DNA of 64,000 bases from an uncultured Acidobacteriota bacterium (GCA_963729215.1 CAVSND010000030.1:74239-138238), one strand, 5' to 3'. Positions 1,287 to 63,752 are shown, counted from the stretch's first letter. Numbers and translations are program-made. Notes: generated by a model from the letters alone, not told the origin.

Positions 1287-1838
1287 CTATCGATCGCGTT
1301 CGGCGTCGAGATGGCTCAAGGTGTACTGGCAGGGTCCGTATCCCTGCAACTCGGCGGCCTTGAGAACGGACGCCGCAGCGCGGGCCAGGGCGCTGTAAGC
1401 CGGCAGCCCGTCCGCGGCGTGCAGCTCTCTCGCGGCGTGGCTGAAGAGGGTCAGCGACGACACCAGTTTCAGCGCGTCCGTGGACGATCCCATCAGCGTG
1501 TTGATGGACGCGCCCCTCGACAGATGGTTCGCCACCTCGGTCGCGATCGCCAGCAGGCGTGAGCGAAGCGTGGGATGCCGCAGATACTCTTTGGCTTCCT
1601 CGAGGCCGTGAATGCCGTACGTGCGCGAGACGCTCGACGAACCAAGCCCCGCCAGCTGCGGACACACGTACCAAATCCAGTGGCCGGTCTTCGCCCCGGA
1701 CTGAATCTCCCGCAGCGCGGCGTCAAATCCCGAGGACGGCTGATCCTGCGCGTCCGTGAACCGCGCCAGCGCTGACGCGCCGGGACGGTCAGGGCGCTTT
1801 GCAGACAAAGTTCGCCGCGTCGTTGGTGCTGCCCGCAC
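1287..1838 (-). CDS. DUF1810 family protein
   Basis: Motifs LARFTDAQD..ALREIQSGAKTGHWIWYVCPQLAGLGSS..SRTYGI..EEAKEYLRHP. The ATG at 1838 overlaps the upstream gene by 50 nt, so the true start may be internal (about 1769). Confidence 0.65.
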   Translation of the reverse strand: MRAAPTTRRTLSAKRPDRPGASALARFTDAQDQPSSGFDAALREIQSGAKTGHWIWYVCPQLAGLGSSSVSRTYGIHGLEEAKEYLRHPTLRSRLLAIATEVANHLSRGASINTLMGSSTDALKLVSSLTLFSHAARELHAADGLPAYSALARAAASVLKAAELQGYGPCQYTLSHLDAERDR

Positions 1839-3307
1839 CCTTGTACTGGGCGACCGCGGGATACGGACAGAGCGGACGGACGATGTCCACGCGATTGTTC
1901 GTCACGTGATAGGCGGTCATCGTGTCCGGCGCGATGTTGCCCTCGCGCCAGCGTTCCATGATCGCCATGTAGTTGACCTGATTGGGTCCTGGACCACCGC
2001 CGCAGTGCTGCATGCCGGGCGCCATGAACAGCCGGACGAACTGATCCTGCTTGCCGCCCATCTTCCTGACCACGCTCTCGTAGTAGTTGATGCTGTTGCC
2101 CGGTGAAATGGCGGTGTCATCCCAGCCGTGGTACATCAGGAGCTTGCCGCCGTGGGCCTTGAACGCGGACAGATCCGGGTTGACGGCGTTGATGACGCTC
2201 CCGACCTTCTCATCCACGATCTTCAGGTCGCGGTCGAGGTCGAAGGTTTTCGCGTCCCAGTTCGCGTCGTTGTAGGCCACTTGAAACGATCCGACCGAGA
2301 CGCCGGGCGCGAGTTGGCCGGCGAGCACGCCCCAGCCGGTTTCACTGCCAGGCTCCTTGCCTGGAAATACCGCTTCCCCGCTCTTCGTCTTCGTCGTCGC
2401 GTAGGCTCGCTTCACCGATTCGAGCTGCGGCGCCGTCAGACAGCTGTCCGAGTCGGATTCCTTGCACAGGAGCGTTGACGGATCGAAGGAGCAGGCGCGC
2501 GGGTTGTTGATGAGGCCATCCTTCACGCCGTCTTTCGCGTCGCACGCGTCGATGGCGGCCTTGTTGAGCATCGCGAGCTTGGCGGCCGGCACGGCGGCGG
2601 CCGGATCCTTGAGCGCCGGCACGGCGACGCTGAGATCCCACGCGTGCAGATGCGTCTGGAAGTTGGCCGGCGCACCGGCCACGATCGCATCGAAATCCTC
2701 GGGGTATTTCTGCGCTTCCATCAGGCCCTGCCGTCCTCCCGTCGAGCAGCCGTTCCAGTACGACAGGCGCGGCGCCCGATCGTAGAACCTGGTGATCAGC
2801 GTCTTGCTGACGACGGTTGTCTCGTGCACGGCGCGGTACGCGAAGTCCACGACCTTTTCAGGATGGCCAATGGCGAACAGCGCGTTGCCGCCCTTGTGCC
2901 CGGTGTCGGTCGACGCCGTCGCATACCCTTCCTGCACGGCCGTCACCATCGCCGGAAAGCTGATGATGCCGGCCCAGCCGCCCCCGCCGACGAACTGAAA
3001 CTTGCCGTTCCAATTCTCCGGCAGCCACGCCTCCATCTCGATCTCCGAGTCGGACGACGGCCGCAGGATCGCGTTGACCCGGCAGTGCGCGGGCACGATC
3101 TGCGGCGGTGCTGCCGGTCCGCCCCGCCCGCCCTGGGCACGGACCACGTCCGGCCGGCGCGCCCGCGGGAGCCGGCGGCGTGAACGGGCCAGCCGCCACC
3201 ATTCCGGCCGCGACGATCGTCACGTTCGGCAGGGAGAGCGATTTCAGGCTTTCACACGTCGCCGGAGACGAAGCCAGGGTGGCGGAGAGCGCAAGTGCCA
3301 GAATCAT
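1789..3307 (-). pseudogene. tannase/feruloyl esterase family hydrolase, frame broken once near 3140-3165
   Basis: Signal peptide plus CESLKSLSLPNVTIVAAGMVAAGPFTPP lies in the frame of ORF 2858..3307. The rest (PAHCRVNAILRPSSDSEIEMEAWLPENWNGKFQFVGGGGWAG..NGCSTGGRQG) lies in ORF 1789..3147. The shift equals one extra nt. Confidence 0.75.
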
Positions 3308-3341: not shown

Positions 3342-3413
3342 CACGAAGACACGAAGATCACGAAGTTACCTGGAACCGCCCCCGCAGACTTCGTGACTTC
3401 GTGATGTCACGTG
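3342..3413. repeat. palindrome built from CACGAAGA(T) tandem units (3 units, 21-nt loop, about 2.5 inverted units)
   Basis: CACGAAGA CACGAAGAT CACGAAGT ..loop.. ACTTCGTG ACTTCGTGATG TCACGTG. It sits between the Vgb-like stop (3417) and the tannase start (3307). The same unit occurs at 44669..44735. Confidence 0.8.
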
Positions 3414-3416
3414 CGA

Positions 3417-4463
3417 TCATTGAGTGAACCTGAGAAACGCGAGCTTGTTGCCGGCCGTAAACCAGAGCTTGTCGATCAATCGGTCCGCCGGACGACGATC
3501 GCTGCCTGCCGTCAGGCCCGTGGGACCTCCCGCCGGTGCCGGCAGGGGGAACTCGGTGATGACACCGTCCGGCGTGACACGGCCAAGCCTGCCGCCTTTC
3601 GTGTACCACACGTTGCGATCGGGGCCCACCGCGATATTGATCGGCGATCCGCCCTGGCTGGGAATCGGAAACTCGGTGATCTTGCCGTCAAGCGTGATGC
3701 GCGCCACGCGATTGCCGTCCACCACGCGGTCGTCCATGCGGCCGTTCAGTTCCACGAACCACATGTGGCCGTCGGCACCGGCGGTGATGTCACCCGGGCC
3801 GCTGTTGGGACGAGGCAGATCGAATTCCGTCACGTGCCCGTCAAGCGTCATGCGGCCGATCTTGCTCGCATGAAATTCCGAAAACCAGATATTGCCATCC
3901 GGTCCGGCTGCGAGCGCGCGCGGGCCGCTGTTGGGTGTCGGGATCGCAAACTCGGTAATCTCGCCGCGGGGCGTGACGCGGCCGATCTTGCCGGCGGCGA
4001 ACTCGCCAAACCAGACGTTGCCGTCGCGGCCCAGGGCCGTGGCGCGCGGCTGGCTGTCCGGTGTCGGAATGTCGAACTCCGTGATGACCCCGGCGGGCGT
4101 GATACGGCCCATCCGATTGCCAAGGTGCTCCGAGAACCAGAAGTTGCCGTCTGACCCGGCCGTAATGATTCGCGGCGCGCTCCCGGGATGCGGCAGCGGA
4201 TACTCGACAAGCCCCGATCCGTCCTGCGCCATGCGGCCGATCCGGTTGCCTGCGCTTTCGGTGAACCACAGCGTGCCGTCCGGCGCGATGGAAATCGTCG
4301 TGGGGCCGCTGCCCGGGTTCGGCAGCGAAAATTCCGTGAACGTCCCGGTCGCCGCCGGCGGATCAACCGCGACAGCCACGAGCTCCACCATGGAGACTAT
4401 CGTCAAGCAGAACAATGCGTTACGGACGATGGCGACGACTGGATCGGACGGGCTGACACGCAT
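3417..4463 (-). CDS. virginiamycin B lyase (Vgb)-like beta-propeller repeat protein with N-terminal anchor/signal
   Basis: Seven repeats of the form TEF.LP.P.SGP..I..G.DG..WF.E....IGR.T..G, characteristic of the Vgb/streptogramin lyase fold. Confidence 0.7.
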   Translation of the reverse strand: MRVSPSDPVVAIVRNALFCLTIVSMVELVAVAVDPPAATGTFTEFSLPNPGSGPTTISIAPDGTLWFTESAGNRIGRMAQDGSGLVEYPLPHPGSAPRIITAGSDGNFWFSEHLGNRMGRITPAGVITEFDIPTPDSQPRATALGRDGNVWFGEFAAGKIGRVTPRGEITEFAIPTPNSGPRALAAGPDGNIWFSEFHASKIGRMTLDGHVTEFDLPRPNSGPGDITAGADGHMWFVELNGRMDDRVVDGNRVARITLDGKITEFPIPSQGGSPINIAVGPDRNVWYTKGGRLGRVTPDGVITEFPLPAPAGGPTGLTAGSDRRPADRLIDKLWFTAGNKLAFLRFTQ

Positions 4464-30974: not shown

Positions 30975-31070
30975 GGTGTCTGGGTCCTTTCCTTTCAGGA
31001 AATGCGCTTCTGAACCATTAGACGGCGCACCGCCTGTCAGGGACGTGGCTGGGACATTACAAAGAGGAAA

Positions 31071-31135
31071 GGTTCGAGAGGTTCGAGAGGTTCGAGGGGT
31101 TCGAGAGGTTCTAGGGGTTCGAGAGGTTCAGGTGG
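31071..31135. repeat. solitary tandem array of 7 GGTTCGAGA-type units
   Basis: GGTTCGAGA GGTTCGAGA GGTTCGAGGG GTTCGAGAG GTTCTAGGG GTTCGAGAG GTTCAGGTGG. It encodes the last residues (HLNLSNP*) and the stop of the histidine kinase. The unit is the same as at 63166-63752. Confidence 0.85.
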
Positions 31136-43525: not shown

Positions 43526-43900
43526 ATGCCATTCATCATTACCGACCCCTGCATTGAAACAAAGGACACGGCCTGCGTGGACGTGTGCCCGGTCGACTGT
43601 ATTCATCCGCGCAAGGACGAACCCGAATTCGCGCAGGTGACGATGCTCTACATCCACCCGGATGAGTGCATCGACTGCGGCGCATGCGTGCCGGCGTGCC
43701 CGGTGGCGGCGATTTACGAGAGCATCGACGCGACGCCGGCGCACCAGAAGGATCTGATCGAGGCCAACGCGATCTACCGGAACGCCGAACCCGACACGAT
43801 CGCGCGAGCCGAAGAGATCGTCAAGAAACACGTCGCGGACCACGCGGACATCATGGCCGTGCCGGCGGCGGAGCGGCAGGCCGCGCACGCGCGATTCTGA
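43526..43900 (+). CDS. ferredoxin (FdxA-like, [3Fe-4S][4Fe-4S] type)
   Basis: MPFIITDPCIETKDTACVDVCPVDCIH...HPDECIDCGACVPACPVAAI. GGAG lies upstream of the ATG. Confidence 0.85.
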   Translation: MPFIITDPCIETKDTACVDVCPVDCIHPRKDEPEFAQVTMLYIHPDECIDCGACVPACPVAAIYESIDATPAHQKDLIEANAIYRNAEPDTIARAEEIVKKHVADHADIMAVPAAERQAAHARF

Positions 43901-44643
43901 AAATCGCCACCTGGAACGTCAACGGCATCCGGGCGCGTCACGCGCAGGTTCAGGAATGGATCGCGCGGGACCGTCCGGACGTCGTCTGCCTCCAGGAAAT
44001 CAAAGCCACACCCGATCAAATCCCCGAGCTGCTGCTCGATCTCGACGGCTACTGGTGTTACTGGCACGGCGCCAAGGGCTATTCGGGCGTCGGCCTTCAC
44101 GTCAGCCGATCGCTGGCGTCCGAGCGTCCCACCTGTTCCCATCCTGAATTCAATTTCGAAAACCGGATCGCGGCCGTCGAGGTCGGCGAGATCACGGTCG
44201 CGTCCATTTACGTGCCGAACGGCGGGAAGGACTTCCCCGCCAAGATGCGATTCCTCGAGGCGCTCGACGACTACGCGGCTTCGTTCACGGCCAGCGGCCG
44301 GCAGCTGGTGCTCTGCGGGGATCTCAACGTCGCGCGCAGCGAGCAGGACGTGCACCCCAAGGAGCGCAAGCCGAAGGCGATCGGACAGCTGCCGGAAGAG
44401 CGCGCGCTCATCGAGCGCATACTCGGCCGCGGGCTGGTGGACCTCGGACGGGCTCTCGATCCCGCCAACGACGGGATGTTCAGCTGGTGGGCGCCCTGGC
44501 GCAACATGAGGCAGCGCAACATCGGCTGGCGGCTCGACTATGTGCTGGCGACCCACGCGCTTGCATCGCGCGCGCAGAGCTGTCCCGTGCAGGCGGACGT
44601 CGGGACGAGCGACCACGCGCCGGTCATGGCGACGTTCACCTAG
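43897..44643 (+). CDS. xth: exodeoxyribonuclease III
   Basis: LKIATWNVNGIRAR...VVCLQEIK..., GDLNVA, SDHAPV. No canonical start lies near the N-terminus (CTG 43897 / ATT 43894), and the gene overlaps the ferredoxin stop. Confidence 0.85.
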   Translation: MKIATWNVNGIRARHAQVQEWIARDRPDVVCLQEIKATPDQIPELLLDLDGYWCYWHGAKGYSGVGLHVSRSLASERPTCSHPEFNFENRIAAVEVGEITVASIYVPNGGKDFPAKMRFLEALDDYAASFTASGRQLVLCGDLNVARSEQDVHPKERKPKAIGQLPEERALIERILGRGLVDLGRALDPANDGMFSWWAPWRNMRQRNIGWRLDYVLATHALASRAQSCPVQADVGTSDHAPVMATFT

Positions 44644-44668
44644 AGTCCTGCGCAGCTAGAACAATGAA

Positions 44669-44735
44669 CCACGAAGATCACGAAGGTCACGAAGAAGGCT
44701 TAACCTGTAGAGAGAACTTCGTGATCTTCGTGATT
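44669..44735. repeat. palindrome built from CACGAAGAT tandem units (16-bp perfect stem)
   Basis: CACGAAGATCACGAAG (44670-85) pairs with CTTCGTGATCTTCGTG (44717-32). It is followed by the tandem CTGCTCTCGA/CTGCTCTCGC (44742-61). It lies between xth and pepT. Confidence 0.85.
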
Positions 44736-44770
44736 CGAGGATCTGCTCTCGACTGCTCTCGCAACCTGTC

Positions 44771-46016
44771 ATGAGTGACGTCCTCGAGCGGTTTCTGCGC
44801 TACGTGCGGTTCGACACGCGGTCGGACGAGAGCTCGACGACCGTCCCCAGCACCGCCTCCCAGCTGACCTTTCAGCGCCAGCTGGTCGAGGAGTTGAAGG
44901 GGCTCGGGCTCGCTGATGCCGCCCTCGATAACGCACGGTTACGTGATGGCCACCATCCCGGCCACGACGGCCAAGACCGGCGTGCCCGCCATCGGATTCA
45001 TCGCACACGTCGATACGTCACCCGAAATGAGCGGCTCGAACGTCGTGCCCCTCGTGCACGCCCGGTACGACGGCGGGGACATCCGCCTGCCGGACGATCC
45101 GGCGGCCGTCCTGCGGCTGGCCGACAATCCCGCGCTGCGCGCACAGATCGGCCACGACATCGTCACGGCGTCCGGCAACACGCTCCTTGGCGCGGACGAC
45201 AAGGCCGGCGTCGCCGAAATCGTCACGGCCGCCGAGTATCTGATGGCACATCCCGAGATCCCGCACGGGGTCGTCCGGATCGCCTTCACGCCGGACGAAG
45301 AGATCGGACGCGGCGCCACGCACTTCGACGTGCCGAGATTTGGATGCCGGTGTGCCTACACGCTCGATGGCGGCACCCGCGGCGAGGTCGAGAGCGAGAG
45401 CTTCTCGGCCGACGCGATGACACTCACGTTCGACGGCTTCAACACGCACCCCGGCTATGCGAAGGGCCGCATGGTGAACGCGATAAAGGTCGCCGCGGAC
45501 TTCATCCATCACCTGCCCTCCGACCGGCTGTCGCCTGAAATGACAGAGGGGTACGAGGGTTTCGTGCATCCGTACGTCCAGCAGTCAGGCGTCGATCGCA
45601 CCACCGTCCGGCTGATCGTGCGCGACTTCCGCACCGAGGGCCTCAAGGAGAAGGAAGCCCTCGTCGAACGCCTGGCCCGTGAGGCGGCCGCGCGCCATGC
45701 CGGCGCCCGCGTTGAAATCGTCCATCGAGGAACAGGTACCCGGAACATGAAGGCTGTCCTCGACCAGCACCCGGAAGTCGTGGAATACGCGTACGAGGCC
45801 GTCCGCCGCGCGGGTGTCGACGTCCGGGCCACGCCCATCAGGGGCGGCACGGACGGATCGAAGCTGTCGTTCATGGGCCTCCCCACGCCGAATCTGTTCG
45901 CCGGCGAGCACAACTTTCATTCGCGGCTCGAGTGGGTCTCGCGGCAGGACATGGAGAAAGCCGTCGACGTCATCGTCTGGCTCTGCCGCGTCTGGGAGGA
46001 GCGTTCCCCCGTCTAA
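44771..46016 (+). pseudogene. pepT: peptidase T (tripeptide aminopeptidase, M20B), frame broken near 44932
   Basis: MSDVLERFLRYVRFDTRSDESSTTVPSTASQLTFQRQLVEELKGLGLADAALD lies in the first frame. HGYVMATIPATT..IGFIAHVDTSPE..GADDKAGVAEI..FTPDEEIG lies in ORF 44916..46016. Confidence 0.85.
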
Positions 46017-48829: not shown

Positions 48830-48864
48830 TGCCGATCTCGTGCCATCTCGTGCCGATCTCGTGG
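48830..48864. repeat. tandem array TGCCGATCTCG x3
   Basis: TGCCGATCTCG TGCCATCTCG TGCCGATCTCG TGG, in the purA upstream region. Confidence 0.8.
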
Positions 48865-50188: not shown

Positions 50189-50190
50189 CC

Positions 50191-50232
50191 CGTTCCTCGT
50201 TTTCCGTTTTCCGTTCTACGTTCTACGTTCTA
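50191..50232. repeat. six tandem heptamers CGTTYYM
   Basis: CGTTCCT CGTTTTC CGTTTTC CGTTCTA CGTTCTA CGTTCTA, between convergent stops. It encodes the ..RT* end of the minus-strand gene. Confidence 0.85.
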
Positions 50233-51227
50233 GTTCCCAGGACTGGCAGCTTGATCAGCTTCGCCGGATTGTCCTTGAACATCATGTTCAACTCTTTCTC
50301 GGTGAAGCCGGCGCCGCGCAGCGCCTTGGCCGCCAGCGCCAGGGCGTCGGGATGGTTGTTGCCGGGCAAGCCGCTGTCGCTCGAGACAAAGGTCATTGCG
50401 GGTCCCACCTTGCGAATCGCGTCGAAGGCGCGGGCCTGGCCTGCCCCCTCGCGCGAGACCGTTCCCGCGGTGACCTCGATGTAGGCGCCCAGCCTGGTCG
50501 CCTCCTGCATCTGCTCGACGGTCATCGCCCCGCCAAGGCCGAGCAGCGGGTGCGTGACGATCATGCGCTGGACACCCCGCTTCTTGGCTTCGCGCATGAT
50601 CAGGAACGCCTCGTCCGGCGTCACGTGGCCGGTCGCAAGCGTCAGATCGTTCTGAGCGATGACCGAGAGCACTTCGAGCACCTCGGGGAGGAGCTGTCCG
50701 TTGCGCGACACGGCGACGAACGGGCGGTTCTCCTTGCCGGCCTTCACTTCCGGCTCGGAGTCGTGCGTCGGCATCCAGACGATGCGTCCCAGATGGCCGA
50801 CGACGTCGGCCATGTACCGGACCGCCTGCGGATTCATTCCGCCGACCGGGGTGTCGAGCGACACGCCGCCGAACACTTCGAACCCCGGCGTCGCGTACTT
50901 GCGCGCGAGGTACGCGAGTCCGGCCGTCTCGGTCCAGTGATTCTTCAGGAGCACGCCACGCATGCCGCGCTCCTGTGCCAGCTTCGCGACCTCGAAGCCG
51001 TCCCACGAGCGCGGATAGCTGTCCGGATCGCAGTGGGCGTGCAGGTCGATGGCGCCGATCAGTGCGGGGTCGGTCAGATGCTTGTCGACGGAGGGCGGAT
51101 ATTTTCGGTTCTTATACGACTCCCAGGCCGTCTGCGCACGAAGCGTGACGCCAGCCGTCCGCAACCCGACGGCAACAGCCATCACCGATCCGAGCACCAC
51201 CATGAACCGCTTCTGTCCTGCCGTCAT
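50223..51227 (-). CDS. amidohydrolase-fold metal-dependent hydrolase-like protein (secreted; DUF6282-like)
   Basis: Signal/TM MVVLGSVMAVAVGL. IDLHAHCDPD... and VTHP.. are His clusters of TIM-barrel hydrolases. The family name is from memory only. Confidence 0.5.
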   Translation of the reverse strand: MTAGQKRFMVVLGSVMAVAVGLRTAGVTLRAQTAWESYKNRKYPPSVDKHLTDPALIGAIDLHAHCDPDSYPRSWDGFEVAKLAQERGMRGVLLKNHWTETAGLAYLARKYATPGFEVFGGVSLDTPVGGMNPQAVRYMADVVGHLGRIVWMPTHDSEPEVKAGKENRPFVAVSRNGQLLPEVLEVLSVIAQNDLTLATGHVTPDEAFLIMREAKKRGVQRMIVTHPLLGLGGAMTVEQMQEATRLGAYIEVTAGTVSREGAGQARAFDAIRKVGPAMTFVSSDSGLPGNNHPDALALAAKALRGAGFTEKELNMMFKDNPAKLIKLPVLGTRT

Positions 51228-51240
51228 CGATCACCTCGTT

Positions 51241-51390
51241 CCGTGGAGAACGCCGGACCCGTGGAGAACGCAGAGGAGGGTCATAACGCAGAGATCGCAG
51301 AGATCGCCGAGAAGAGTACTTTGGAAAGTCAGTCTTTCTCTGCGATCTCCGCGATCTCTGCGTTTGAGAATGTCTCCGCGTTCTCAAAAG
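51241..51390. repeat. about 150-nt imperfect palindrome built from GCAGAGATC and GGAGAACGC units
   Basis: Inner arms GCAGAGATCGCAGAGATCGCCGAGAAGAG (51288-316) and TCTTTCTCTGCGATCTCCGCGATCTCTGC (51333-61) match at about 25/29. The centre is ACTTTGGAAAGT. Outer arms are TGGAGAACGCCGGAC and GTCTCCGCGTTCTCA. Confidence 0.85.
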
Positions 51391-58184: not shown

Positions 58185-58237
58185 GCTCGTGGCTCGTGCT
58201 CGAGCTCGTGGCTCGTCGTGGCTAGTGGTCGGTGGTC
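58183..58237. repeat. tandem CTCGTGG/CTCGTG-type short repeats between convergent stops
   Basis: GAGCTCGTGGCTCGTGCTC GAGCTCGTGGCTCGTCGTGGCTAGTGGTCGGTGGTC. It encodes the ..TTDH* end of rnc. Confidence 0.75.
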
Positions 58238-62523: not shown

Positions 62524-63165
62524 TTGAATCTTCTCGACTTCATTCTCCACAGCGATAAGAAGCTCCTCGAACTCGTCTCCACGTATGGGTCGTGGGTGTA
62601 CGGGATCCTGTTTGCGATCGTCTTCGCTGAAACAGGCTTCGTCGTGACGCCATTCCTGCCGGGCGATTCGCTGCTGTTCGCGACGGGCGCGCTCTGCGCG
62701 CAGGGGAGGCTCAGCACACCCGTGGCGATCGGGTTGCTGATCCTGGCCGCGTTCACGGGCAACGCCGTCAACTACACGATCGGGCGCCTCATCGGGCCGC
62801 GGGTCTTCAAGGCGACGGATCGATCGGGATTCTCCCACCGGCTGATGAACCAGGAACATCTGCAGCGGGCACACGCGTTCTTCGAGGAGTACGGCGGCAA
62901 GGCGATCATCCTGGGACGGTTCGTGCCGATCGTGCGGACGTTCGTGCCGTTCGTGGCCGGCGCGGCGTCGATGCGGTCTCACACGTTCGCGCTGGTCAAC
63001 CTGATCGGCGCGGCCGCCTGGGTCGGCCTCTGCGTCGGGGCGGGCCTGCTGTTCGGCAACATCCCCATCGTCAAGCAGAATTTCTCCCTCGTCACGATCG
63101 GCATCGTCGCCGTCTCCCTGCTGCCGATGGCGATCGAGATCATCAAGAGGCGGCGGCGACGGTAA
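62524..63165 (+). CDS. DedA-family (SNARE-associated) membrane protein
   Basis: FAETGFVVTPFLPGDSLLF..GRF.PIVRTF.PF.AG. Confidence 0.85.
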   Translation: MNLLDFILHSDKKLLELVSTYGSWVYGILFAIVFAETGFVVTPFLPGDSLLFATGALCAQGRLSTPVAIGLLILAAFTGNAVNYTIGRLIGPRVFKATDRSGFSHRLMNQEHLQRAHAFFEEYGGKAIILGRFVPIVRTFVPFVAGAASMRSHTFALVNLIGAAAWVGLCVGAGLLFGNIPIVKQNFSLVTIGIVAVSLLPMAIEIIKRRRRR

Positions 63166-63230
63166 TTCGAGGGTTCGAGAGGTTCGAGGGGTTCGAGAGG
63201 TTCGAGAGGTTCAAGAGGTTCCGGAGATTC
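63166..63230. repeat. left inverted arm of GGTTCGAGA tandem units
   Basis: TTCGAGG GTTCGAGAG GTTCGAGGG GTTCGAGAG GTTCGAGAG GTTCAAGAG GTTCCGGAG ATTC. It starts 1 nt after the dedA stop. Confidence 0.9.
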
Positions 63231-63252
63231 GTCGGAGCGGCGGGCATGCTTT

Positions 63253-63684
63253 GTGCTCCCACGAACCTCCGTGGCTGGCGTGTCGCGCTACGAAGACCTT
63301 GTCGCATGGCACCTTGCGCACGAATTGCAGCGGGAGGTGTTTGCACTGACTGCAACAGGGCCGGCGTCGAGGGATTTCAGATTTCGCGATCAGATTCGCG
63401 ACTCGTCGTCATCCGTCACACGCAACATCGCGGAGGGGTTTGGCCGGTACCGGCCGGGCGAGTTCGCCAGGTTTCTCGACATCGCCAGAGGGTCGCTGAC
63501 CGAAACCCACAACAGCCTGCGCGACGGTCACGACCGTGGTTACTTCACAGCGTTCGACACCGACCGGATGCAACTTCTCGCGGGACGAGCGGCGAAGGCC
63601 ATCACCGGTCTGATCCGCTACCTGCGGACCTGCGCGCGTAAAAATACCGCCGCTCCGTCTCCGCGAATACCGCGAACCTCTTGA
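63253..63684 (+). CDS. four-helix-bundle protein (23S rRNA intervening-sequence protein / S23p family, TIGR02436-like)
   Basis: SRYEDLVAWHLAHELQREVFALT...FRFRDQIRDSSSSVTRNIAEGFGRYRPGEFARFLDIARGSLTETHNSL. The true start is probably GTG 63271 or 63280. The stop TGA lies inside the right arm. Confidence 0.8.
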   Translation: MLPRTSVAGVSRYEDLVAWHLAHELQREVFALTATGPASRDFRFRDQIRDSSSSVTRNIAEGFGRYRPGEFARFLDIARGSLTETHNSLRDGHDRGYFTAFDTDRMQLLAGRAAKAITGLIRYLRTCARKNTAAPSPRIPRTS

Positions 63685-63752
63685 GCCCTGAACCTCTCGA
63701 ACCTCTCGAACCCCTCGAACCTCTCGAACCCCTCGAACCCTCGAACCTCTAG
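63674..63752. repeat. right inverted arm (GAACCTCTC/GAACCCCTC units), reverse complement of 63166-63230
   Basis: GAACCTCTTGAGCCCTGAACCTCTCGAACCTCTCGAACCCCTCGAACCTCTCGAACCCCTCGAACCCTCGAACCTCTAG. It contains the stop codons of the 4HB gene and of cutA. Confidence 0.9.

Follow-up and report, generated by a model that had tools for sequence, protein, structure and literature searches.

A hairpin of tandem heptamers between xth and pepT of an uncultured Acidobacteriota bacterium belongs to a cross-phylum family and is built like the intervening sequences of ribosomal RNA

Short intergenic palindromes present in many copies are known as repetitive extragenic palindromes (REP) and REPINs, for which a RAYT gene between inverted repeats and effects on messenger RNA (mRNA) stability have been described. 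REP families are species-specific, and RAYT is an HUH/Y1 protein encoded by a single-copy gene. An inverted-repeat stem of another kind delimits the intervening sequence (IVS) within the 23S ribosomal RNA (rRNA) of Coxiella burnetii, in which terminal inverted repeats form a stem of 28 bp that is cut in mid-stem by RNase III in vitro, and in which three tandem heptamers, GACAGAT, of strain-variable copy number precede the ATG of the S23p gene (PMC4990558). Tandem heptamers of the sequence TAACTGA are also found between the genes of marine Beggiatoaceae and cyanobacteria, where horizontal spread is suspected and a post-transcriptional role has been proposed (PMC4679880). Here we describe a heptamer-array hairpin located between xth (exodeoxyribonuclease III) and pepT (peptidase T) in a 64,000-nucleotide stretch of DNA, hereafter the window, from an uncultured Acidobacteriota bacterium (GCA_963729215.1, CAVSND010000030.1:74239-138238). 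The element, referred to as copy 2, copy 1 being a hairpin of the same unit elsewhere in the window, is a member of a cross-phylum family and not a local hairpin.

The sequence CACGAAGATCACGAAG at 44670-44685 is followed by its exact reverse complement, CTTCGTGATCTTCGTG, at 44717-44732, bearing out the sequence-only reading of this stretch, which had reported a perfect 16-bp stem around a 31-nt loop and a palindrome devoid of any open reading frame (ORF). The finer build of copy 2 consists of three direct CACGAAG units with a 9-bp period, a loop of 22 nt and two inverted CTTCGTG units. The left arm (44670..44694, plus strand) carries its units at 44670, 44679 and 44688 and has GAAC just before it; the loop (44695..44716, plus strand), AAGGCTTAACCTGTAGAGAGAA, differs between orthologous copies; and the right arm (44717..44739, plus strand) carries exact units at 44717 and 44726 together with a degenerate third unit, ATTCGAG, at 44733-44739, where the orthologs of 3+3 build carry three exact ones. 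An alternative pairing register gives a stem of 17 bp with the 22-nt loop, and the core folds with -33.8 kcal/mol, at a z-score of -6.0. Copy 2 is an empty form, as its 22-nt loop contains no ORF and its interior no significant remnant of the small GxxExxY ORF described below. The gene xth (43897..44643, plus strand; TIGR00633 3e-65) ends 26 nt before the hairpin, and the ATG of pepT (44771..46016, plus strand; NF003976 9e-141) stands 38 nt past the last exact unit, so that the position of the element between two co-directional genes, as described before, could be confirmed. A 10-bp direct pair, CTGCTCTCGA/CTGCTCTCGC, noticed earlier downstream of the palindrome is also present, but at 44743..44762 on the plus strand, one base off the coordinates given for it (44742-61), and it ends 8 nt and not 10 nt before the pepT ATG at 44771. 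No second instance of this pair exists in the window, and the xth-pepT spacer of relatives lacks it; being window-specific, it is therefore probably incidental and outside the element.

Copy 1 (3342..3403, no strand assigned) carries CACGAAG three times (3342, 3350 and 3359), a 23-nt loop and CTTCGTG twice (3389 and 3397), and the earlier view that copy 2 and 3342-3413 share one unit family was correct, the 3+2 build being found at both. If the family is taken to require, on one arm, two or more CACGAAG units in tandem (period 8-9 nt), then a loop, and on the other arm two or more inverted CTTCGTG units, both copies belong to it with 3+2 exact units each. Outside the outer units, copy 2 shows GAAC on the left and the degenerate ATTCGAG on the right, while copy 1 shows only T...A. 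The octamer TCACGAAG occurs eight times in the window, always inside copies 1 and 2, against an expectation of 2.5, and a count of eight was matched in one of 100 shuffles; for the two-unit pattern, eight matches were found against 0.75 expected, a number reached by no shuffle. Beyond what had been noticed before, the present analysis added the third unit of the left arm, the cross-phylum family, the bracketing of GxxExxY genes by the same arms and a set of window elements built of other units.

Absence of the motif elsewhere in the genome had been named beforehand as part of the outcome that would speak against the element, and the motif turned out to be widespread. When a single genome of each species was scanned for the pattern CACGAAG-N10-40-CTTCGTG-N1-2-CTTCGTG, for which about 20 matches were estimated to be expected by chance, at least 120 loci were identified in about 12 phyla. 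Among the matches listed are members of the Acidobacteriota, Desulfobacterota, Chloroflexota, Verrucomicrobiota, Planctomycetota, Nitrospirota, Alpha- and Gammaproteobacteria, Bacteroidota, Bacillota (Pelosinus), Binatia, Schekmanbacteria and Hydrogenedentota, including the cultured strains Thiohalophilus thiocyanatoxydans DSM 16326, Desulfobacter vibrioformis DSM 8776 and Herpetosiphon sp. NSE202. The listed loci share the frame (T)YAC-[CACGAAG N1-3]x2-4-loop-[CTTCGTG N1-3]x2-4-GTR and thus show features that are not part of the search pattern, namely extra units, complementary spacers of 1-3 nt and ends that are mostly TCAC...GTGA. For 57 strict hairpins from other genomes, nearly all are built of 2+2, 3+3, 3+2 or 2+3 units with a median loop of 23 nt, and the inter-unit spacers of one arm exactly complement those of the other in 43% of the cases, compared with 9% (maximum 21%) for permuted arm pairs. 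Unit variants are likewise paired, both arms being altered together, as in CATGAAG/CTTCATG, CACAGAG/CTCTGTG and CGCAGAG/CTCTGCG. Only 33% of the copies lie inside long open frames, compared with 84% of random positions, indicating that the family is mostly intergenic. No conserved neighbour gene was found, the largest cluster comprising 10 of the at least 120 loci and consisting of common families, and a target-site duplication was not apparent either, direct repeats of at least 5 bp flanking 6.4% of 94 copies as compared with 8.6% of permuted flanks. A further 53 stretches with CACGAAG hairpins (L213-L265) were collected from the viral contigs of IMG/VR, and viral or prophage-like contigs are a possible route of spread between phyla. 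Rfam gave no match at the gathering threshold in the window or in the hairpins of 17 related loci, except for one tRNA elsewhere in L037, and at permissive E-values only chance models of microRNAs and small nucleolar RNAs were hit.

The proposal of a terminator without U-tract, one of three functions offered earlier for copy 2, was rejected. No terminator-like site was detected in 44300-45000, and the sequence following the stem, ATTCGAGG, contains no U-tract. Runs of four or more T are also rare across the family, such a run following a given arm in only 12% of the copies among the 57 strict hairpins and being lacking on both sides in 79%. The 127-nt spacer between xth and pepT contains neither a promoter-like nor a terminator-like site. 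Of the three functions, an RNase III site is the one for which outside support exists, by analogy with the Coxiella 23S IVS (PMC4990558).

The same arms are found around small genes. At locus L042, widely spaced arms enclose an ORF of 123 codons for a GxxExxY protein (TIGR04256 7e-45; PF13366 1.7e-43). A metagenome search with this protein yielded 80 loci, 68-89% identical, of which 69 have complete flanks. Heptamer arms adjoin the GxxExxY ORF in 60 of these 69 loci, on both sides in 46; in 40 loci the ATG is directly preceded by two or more exact CACGAAG units and the stop codon directly followed by two or more CTTCGTG units. Variant heptamers occupy both sides in six further loci (CATGAAG/CTTCATG in five, CACAGAG/CTCTGTG in one), 14 of the 69 have a CACGAAG arm on one side only, the other side being degenerate or carrying a nested hairpin instead, and nine are without arms by the strict test. 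The arms of the GxxExxY cassettes pair over a median of 33 positions, and the purine-rich arm places a Shine-Dalgarno-like sequence of the GAAGGA or GAAGAG type 8-10 nt before the ATG. The genes themselves look like promoterless insertions into spacers and for the most part run in the direction of their neighbours. Arms are not restricted to this cargo: at L115 a left CACGAAG arm precedes the gene for a four-helix-bundle protein (TIGR02436 2e-29), and at L068 a four-helix-bundle gene stands between arrays of ATTACGA-type units.

Annotated isolates give the same picture, among them Bacteroides finegoldii (radA-GxxExxY-FAD protein, CACAGAG arms), Sphingomonas parapaucimobilis (fabD-GxxExxY-fabG, CGCGAAG, left arm only), Gemmatirosa kalamazoonensis (GxxExxY followed by an empty hairpin, CGCAGAG) and Lacimicrobium alkaliphilum (CP013650.1, cassette at about 89.1-89.6 kb; GxxExxY with CACGAAG arms, upstream of hutU and a gene for a GntR-family regulator). 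Judged by their sequences, the GxxExxY genes look functional: 76 of the 80 ORFs are uninterrupted, and the PD-(D/E)XK signature, E...D...ELK, shows virtually no variation. Proteins 84-85% identical to the query, which comes from a Desulfobacteraceae genome bin, were found in Gammaproteobacteria, Desantisbacteria and Bipolaricaulota, and this indicates horizontal transfer. All 8000 scored GxxExxY candidates had E <= 1e-10. Sequence and profile searches of the PDB with GxxExxY gave no match, no structure in the family having been solved, and an AlphaFold2 model from a shallow alignment was unusable, with a predicted local distance difference test score of 47. A marginal similarity to Cas4 detected by PADLOC (E = 0.005) was discarded as it reflects only the shared PD-(D/E)XK fold. 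It was also observed in L121-L200 that the C-terminus of GxxExxY reads GIKRFVL where the arms are CACGAAG and GLKSFVL where they are CATGAAG, a match that could represent a protein-DNA contact or merely shared ancestry.

The relation between full and short forms was seen in one population with the order dcd-GxxExxY-yfhO, which carries protein P0302, assigned by one source to a Desantisbacteria bacterium. A 172-bp mini-cassette, consisting of the arms and a GxxExxY ORF cut in frame by an internal deletion to 27 codons, lies directly upstream of the full cassette in L125, L270, L272 and L275 (about 1288-1460) and is missing from contigs L127, L266 and L269 of the same population. This presence and absence within one population therefore shows that cassettes are duplicated and that they degenerate to short forms. 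When the loops of ORF-less hairpins were compared with the end of the GxxExxY ORF, no significant trace of it was found: the mean score reached only a z-score of about 2, and three of 207 loops lay above the 99th percentile, 2.1 being expected. Most empty hairpins may be decayed cassettes; alternatively, ORFs may enter hairpins that were there before them. As to other interiors, long loops with 120-180 nt and no recognisable ORF were observed at L085 (3131-3308), L112 (1800-2300 and 4070-4165) and L011 (2135-2306); the interior at L085 is itself a G+C-rich palindrome, suggestive of a nested insertion into the loop, and several arms stand in tandem at L112.

The history of copy 2 was traced by comparing the xth-pepT spacer in nine lineages, the window with its 3+2 CACGAAG hairpin and eight relatives with PepT proteins 83-97% identical. 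CACGAAG hairpins of 3+3 build are present in L205, L207, L209, L278 and L279 (PepT identity of 95, 93, 91, 85 and 83%, respectively), and L278, which looked empty from gene calls, is not. Only the left arm is found in L201-204 (96%) and only two left units in L277 (88%), while L280 (83%) carries at 1878-2000 a hairpin of another unit, TGCAGRAT four to five times and ATCCTGCR five times, with -61 kcal/mol. In total, the CACGAAG hairpin is kept in six of the nine lineages and a hairpin of any unit in seven. No empty site was found, all eight related lineages carrying a hairpin or its remnant, and therefore the element is old at this spacer and was inherited across a clade of Vicinamibacterales-like Acidobacteriota. 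In the kept CACGAAG hairpins the heptamers are nearly unchanged, whereas spacers, loop and outer flanks can no longer be aligned; the heptamers are thus maintained either by constraint or by conversion that keeps them alike. The hairpin of L280 arose either through replacement by another family member or through concerted change of all units, and the hairpin at xth-pepT may be replaceable by another member of its class. The Vgb-like neighbour of copy 1 has no close relatives (79% identity at most).

Taken together, we consider that copy 2 is probably an empty IVS-like hairpin stemming from a mobile or selfish element, that it would be read through, and that it would serve as a substrate of RNase III, the last by analogy with the IVS. 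The derivation from such an element is suggested by the same arms bracketing small promoterless genes elsewhere and by the IVS-like build. In the mechanism that we propose, the transcript of xth would read through the hairpin into pepT, and the arms would come together as a duplex with interruptions, some 17-25 bp in length, a putative RNase III substrate like the heptamer-bearing IVS stem of Coxiella. Cleavage might then split the xth and pepT cistrons or protect their ends, rather than terminate transcription. The heptamer itself may be read by a sequence-specific partner, which the strict conservation of the heptamers implies and for which the GxxExxY nuclease-fold protein is a candidate.

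A number of observations weigh against this interpretation. The exact stem of 16-17 bp is at the short end of the range for RNase III, cleavage of the element is drawn from analogy only, and RNase III has so little sequence specificity that the conservation of CACGAAG across phyla is left unexplained by it. In the ORF-bearing cassettes, G:T mismatches between the arms (53) are about matched by A:C mismatches (48), so that a sense-strand preference for G-U is lacking and selection for pairing in RNA does not follow from the data; it could just as well be in DNA that the arms pair, and complementary changes in both arms could come from template-switch correction of quasi-palindromes without selection. 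The right arm was lost in two lineages (L201-204 and L277), indicating that the hairpin is dispensable there. Only once, in the mini-cassette, is it documented that a short form descends from a cassette with an ORF. The 64-kb window holds no GxxExxY gene, and an answer in terms of this one protein is further weakened by the CACGAAG arms that carry a four-helix-bundle gene.

Part of this evidence would be accommodated by a system acting on DNA in the manner of REP and REPIN, in which the heptamer arrays are recognition sites of a nuclease encoded in trans, GxxExxY plays the role of RAYT by acting on hairpin or cruciform DNA to spread or maintain the copies, and the window copy is a non-autonomous member without RNA function. 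We regard this as possible though rather unlikely. A gene between inverted copies of a repeat that is also scattered without the gene is what is seen with RAYT and REP, and the conservation of the heptamer sequence, beyond its pairing, across phyla and at the orthologous site would be in keeping with recognition of this kind, as would the conserved catalytic motif of GxxExxY, the absence of a sense-strand G-U bias, the transfer of proteins 84-85% identical between distant groups and the variable presence of the mini-cassette within one population. The match of GIKRFVL with CACGAAG and of GLKSFVL with CATGAAG arms points in the same direction, but it may reflect shared descent only. On the other hand, the arms are not tied to one protein, given the non-nuclease ORF of L115 and the other units used by four-helix-bundle cassettes; GxxExxY is multi-copy, each gene with its own arms, unlike the single-copy RAYT; and there is neither a target-site duplication nor, in the absence of an empty site among nine xth-pepT lineages, any sign of recent movement there.

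The retention of a hairpin in seven of nine lineages, six with CACGAAG and one, L280, with another unit, suggests that a hairpin is favoured at this spacer and could be taken for the mark of a host regulatory hairpin evolved for the xth-pepT operon as mRNA stabiliser, attenuator or device of translational coupling. Such an origin is, however, quite improbable in view of the spread of the units over about 12 phyla in contexts that are unrelated and have no neighbour in common (at least 120 loci), the bracketing of mobile-looking small ORFs by the arms, and the loss of one arm in two lineages that kept both genes. Least credible of all is an operator, that is, an array of transcription-factor sites on double-stranded DNA. 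The heptamers are indeed short, conserved, regularly spaced and present in both orientations, but no regulator or any further gene recurs in the neighbourhood, a period of 8-9 bp does not match the turn of the DNA helix, the arms stand at both ends of ORFs and also downstream of stop codons, no promoter-like site is found in the xth-pepT spacer, and the spacers co-vary between the arms, which points to pairing.

The window contains further elements of the same build. A third empty hairpin (51287..51362, no strand assigned) is made of another unit, CGCAGAG(AT) three times and CTCTGCG three times around a 26-nt loop, with -53 to -55 kcal/mol and a z-score of -8 to -10; it lies between two minus-strand genes, and its palindrome stretches to about 51263-51387 through weaker outer units. 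The CGCAGAG unit is also that of the hairpin 3' of the GxxExxY gene in Gemmatirosa (L211). Copy 1 has on one side a Vgb-like gene (3417..4463, minus strand), whose stop faces the hairpin, and on the other the ATG, at 3307, of the gene that follows on the minus strand, and all three ORF-less hairpins of the window thus sit between co-directional genes. A cassette with an ORF (63166..63750, plus strand) consists of arrays of GGTTCGAGR and CTCGAACCY around a four-helix-bundle ORF: the left array holds six to seven GGTTCGAGR units (63166-63230), the ORF at 63271-63684 encodes a four-helix-bundle protein of the 23S_rRNA_IVP type (TIGR02436 1.6e-23; PF05635 2e-25), and the inverted array holds seven to nine CTCGAACCY units (63673-63750), with the stop codon inside this right array. 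Its arms pair over more than 55 bp with a z-score of -11.5. The cassette lies between a DedA-like gene and a gene that, by sequence alone, looks convergent. Nearby, the 9-bp periodic GTTCGTGCC at 62914-62955 was considered as an element arm and rejected, since it lies inside a coding region translating to VPIVRTFVPFVAG, which we take to resemble a DedA-family motif.

Solo arrays of 7-11-nt units, at gene boundaries and with no inverted partner nearby, were also observed: GGTTCGAGR seven times at 31070..31132 (plus strand), the unit shared with the cassette at 63166; GCCGATCTCGT three times at 48830-48863; CGTTTTC/CGTTCTA six times at 50190-50236; and GCTCGTG five times at 58185-58216. These may be half-elements whose other arm has been lost, a situation also seen at the xth-pepT spacer of L201 and L277. 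The window has a G+C content of about 66%, and its PepT homologs point to the Vicinamibacterales, phylum Acidobacteriota; for one protein of the window, no identical entry is on record. The pepT gene is split across two frames near 44920-44940, and the tannase-like gene downstream of copy 1 (minus strand, 1789-3307) is split into 2858..3307 and 1789..3147; because relatives have an intact PepT of 412-416 amino acids, both frameshifts are probably indel errors of the assembly and not the mark of pseudogenes.

Literature searches with the two-unit strings gave no paper with these sequences, apart from one irrelevant primer match, and in the literature on GxxExxY, PDDEXK_3, S23p, IVS-like elements and heptamer repeats the arms are not described, the Coxiella IVS paper aside. 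The literature searched thus contains no description of heptamer arrays that bracket GxxExxY genes, of a CACGAAG hairpin shared across phyla or of the link of the two to the IVS architecture. Both GxxExxY (TIGR04256/PF13366) and the four-helix-bundle 23S rRNA IVS protein (TIGR02436/PF05635) are very large families of unknown function, and if the bracketing and the empty arrays are general, both gain a concrete, testable candidate for a nucleic-acid substrate, the origin and spread of the rRNA IVS, open since about 1990, become a question on a general intergenic element, and many orphan intergenic hairpins in environmental genomes are explained. Heptamer arrays may also have been misannotated as mini-CRISPR arrays, terminators or small RNAs. 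As a speculative extension, to which we would give less than even weight, the heptamer-array hairpins may be the chassis of a hitherto unrecognised, cross-phylum class of selfish mini-cassettes, in which the arms are the vehicle or landing pad, GxxExxY or an Avd-like four-helix-bundle protein is the cargo, and GxxExxY would act as a heptamer-specific spreader or maintainer of full and empty copies, comparable to RAYT and REPIN with another nuclease fold, the 23S rRNA IVS being the special case that landed in an rRNA helix.

Among the known systems, integron attC sites are similar in being imperfect palindromes beside promoterless small ORFs and in being recognised as folded DNA, but the arms described here flank the ORF symmetrically, most copies are without the R''/R' core (RYYYAAC/GTTRRRY), there is no integrase, and the copies are scattered singly among housekeeping genes. 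Miniature inverted-repeat transposable elements share with them the terminal inverted repeats, the absence of a transposase, the intergenic location and one internally deleted derivative (L125); the present copies differ in that no target-site duplication and no parent insertion sequence with a DDE transposase were seen and in that the arms here are made of tandem sub-repeats. With the TAACTGA repeats (PMC4679880) the likeness is that of intergenic tandem heptamers, extending to the solo arrays of the window at 31070, 48830, 50190 and 58185, whereas the TAACTGA repeats are contiguous and direct, have almost no inverted partner and have not been reported to bracket small ORFs. The resemblance to REP and REPIN lies in multi-copy intergenic palindromes, a gene between inverted repeats and a frequent position between co-directional or convergent genes. 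In contrast to these, no GTAG/GTGG head is present, the flanks being TCAC/GAAC...GTGA/GTAA; the arms are tandem arrays and not a single imperfect palindrome; the associated protein is PD-(D/E)XK and not HUH/Y1; and the gene is multi-copy and the unit cross-phylum.

The ORF-bearing 23S IVS of Coxiella, Leptospira and others (PF05635), in which an inverted-repeat stem of 25-30 bp surrounds a small promoterless ORF, is like the cassettes described here, and the IVS arm of Coxiella contains a purine-rich, Shine-Dalgarno-like sequence as do the arms of the GxxExxY cassettes. Cargo in the CACGAAG family is usually a gene of the GxxExxY nuclease fold, compared with a four-helix-bundle gene in the IVS. 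Copy 2 differs from the 23S IVS in being located in an mRNA spacer and not in helix 25 or 45 of 23S rRNA, in having no ORF and in its unit, CACGAAG; the Rfam scan of the window detected no rRNA, and copy 2 is accordingly not in helix 9, 25 or 45. It is built like an rRNA IVS, yet it is no strict member of that class, being outside rRNA and without ORF. What copy 2 shares with the Coxiella IVS is an inverted-repeat stem built of tandem heptamers, and the four-helix-bundle cassette of the same window, at 63166-63750, has the same build as the ORF-bearing IVS, outside rRNA.

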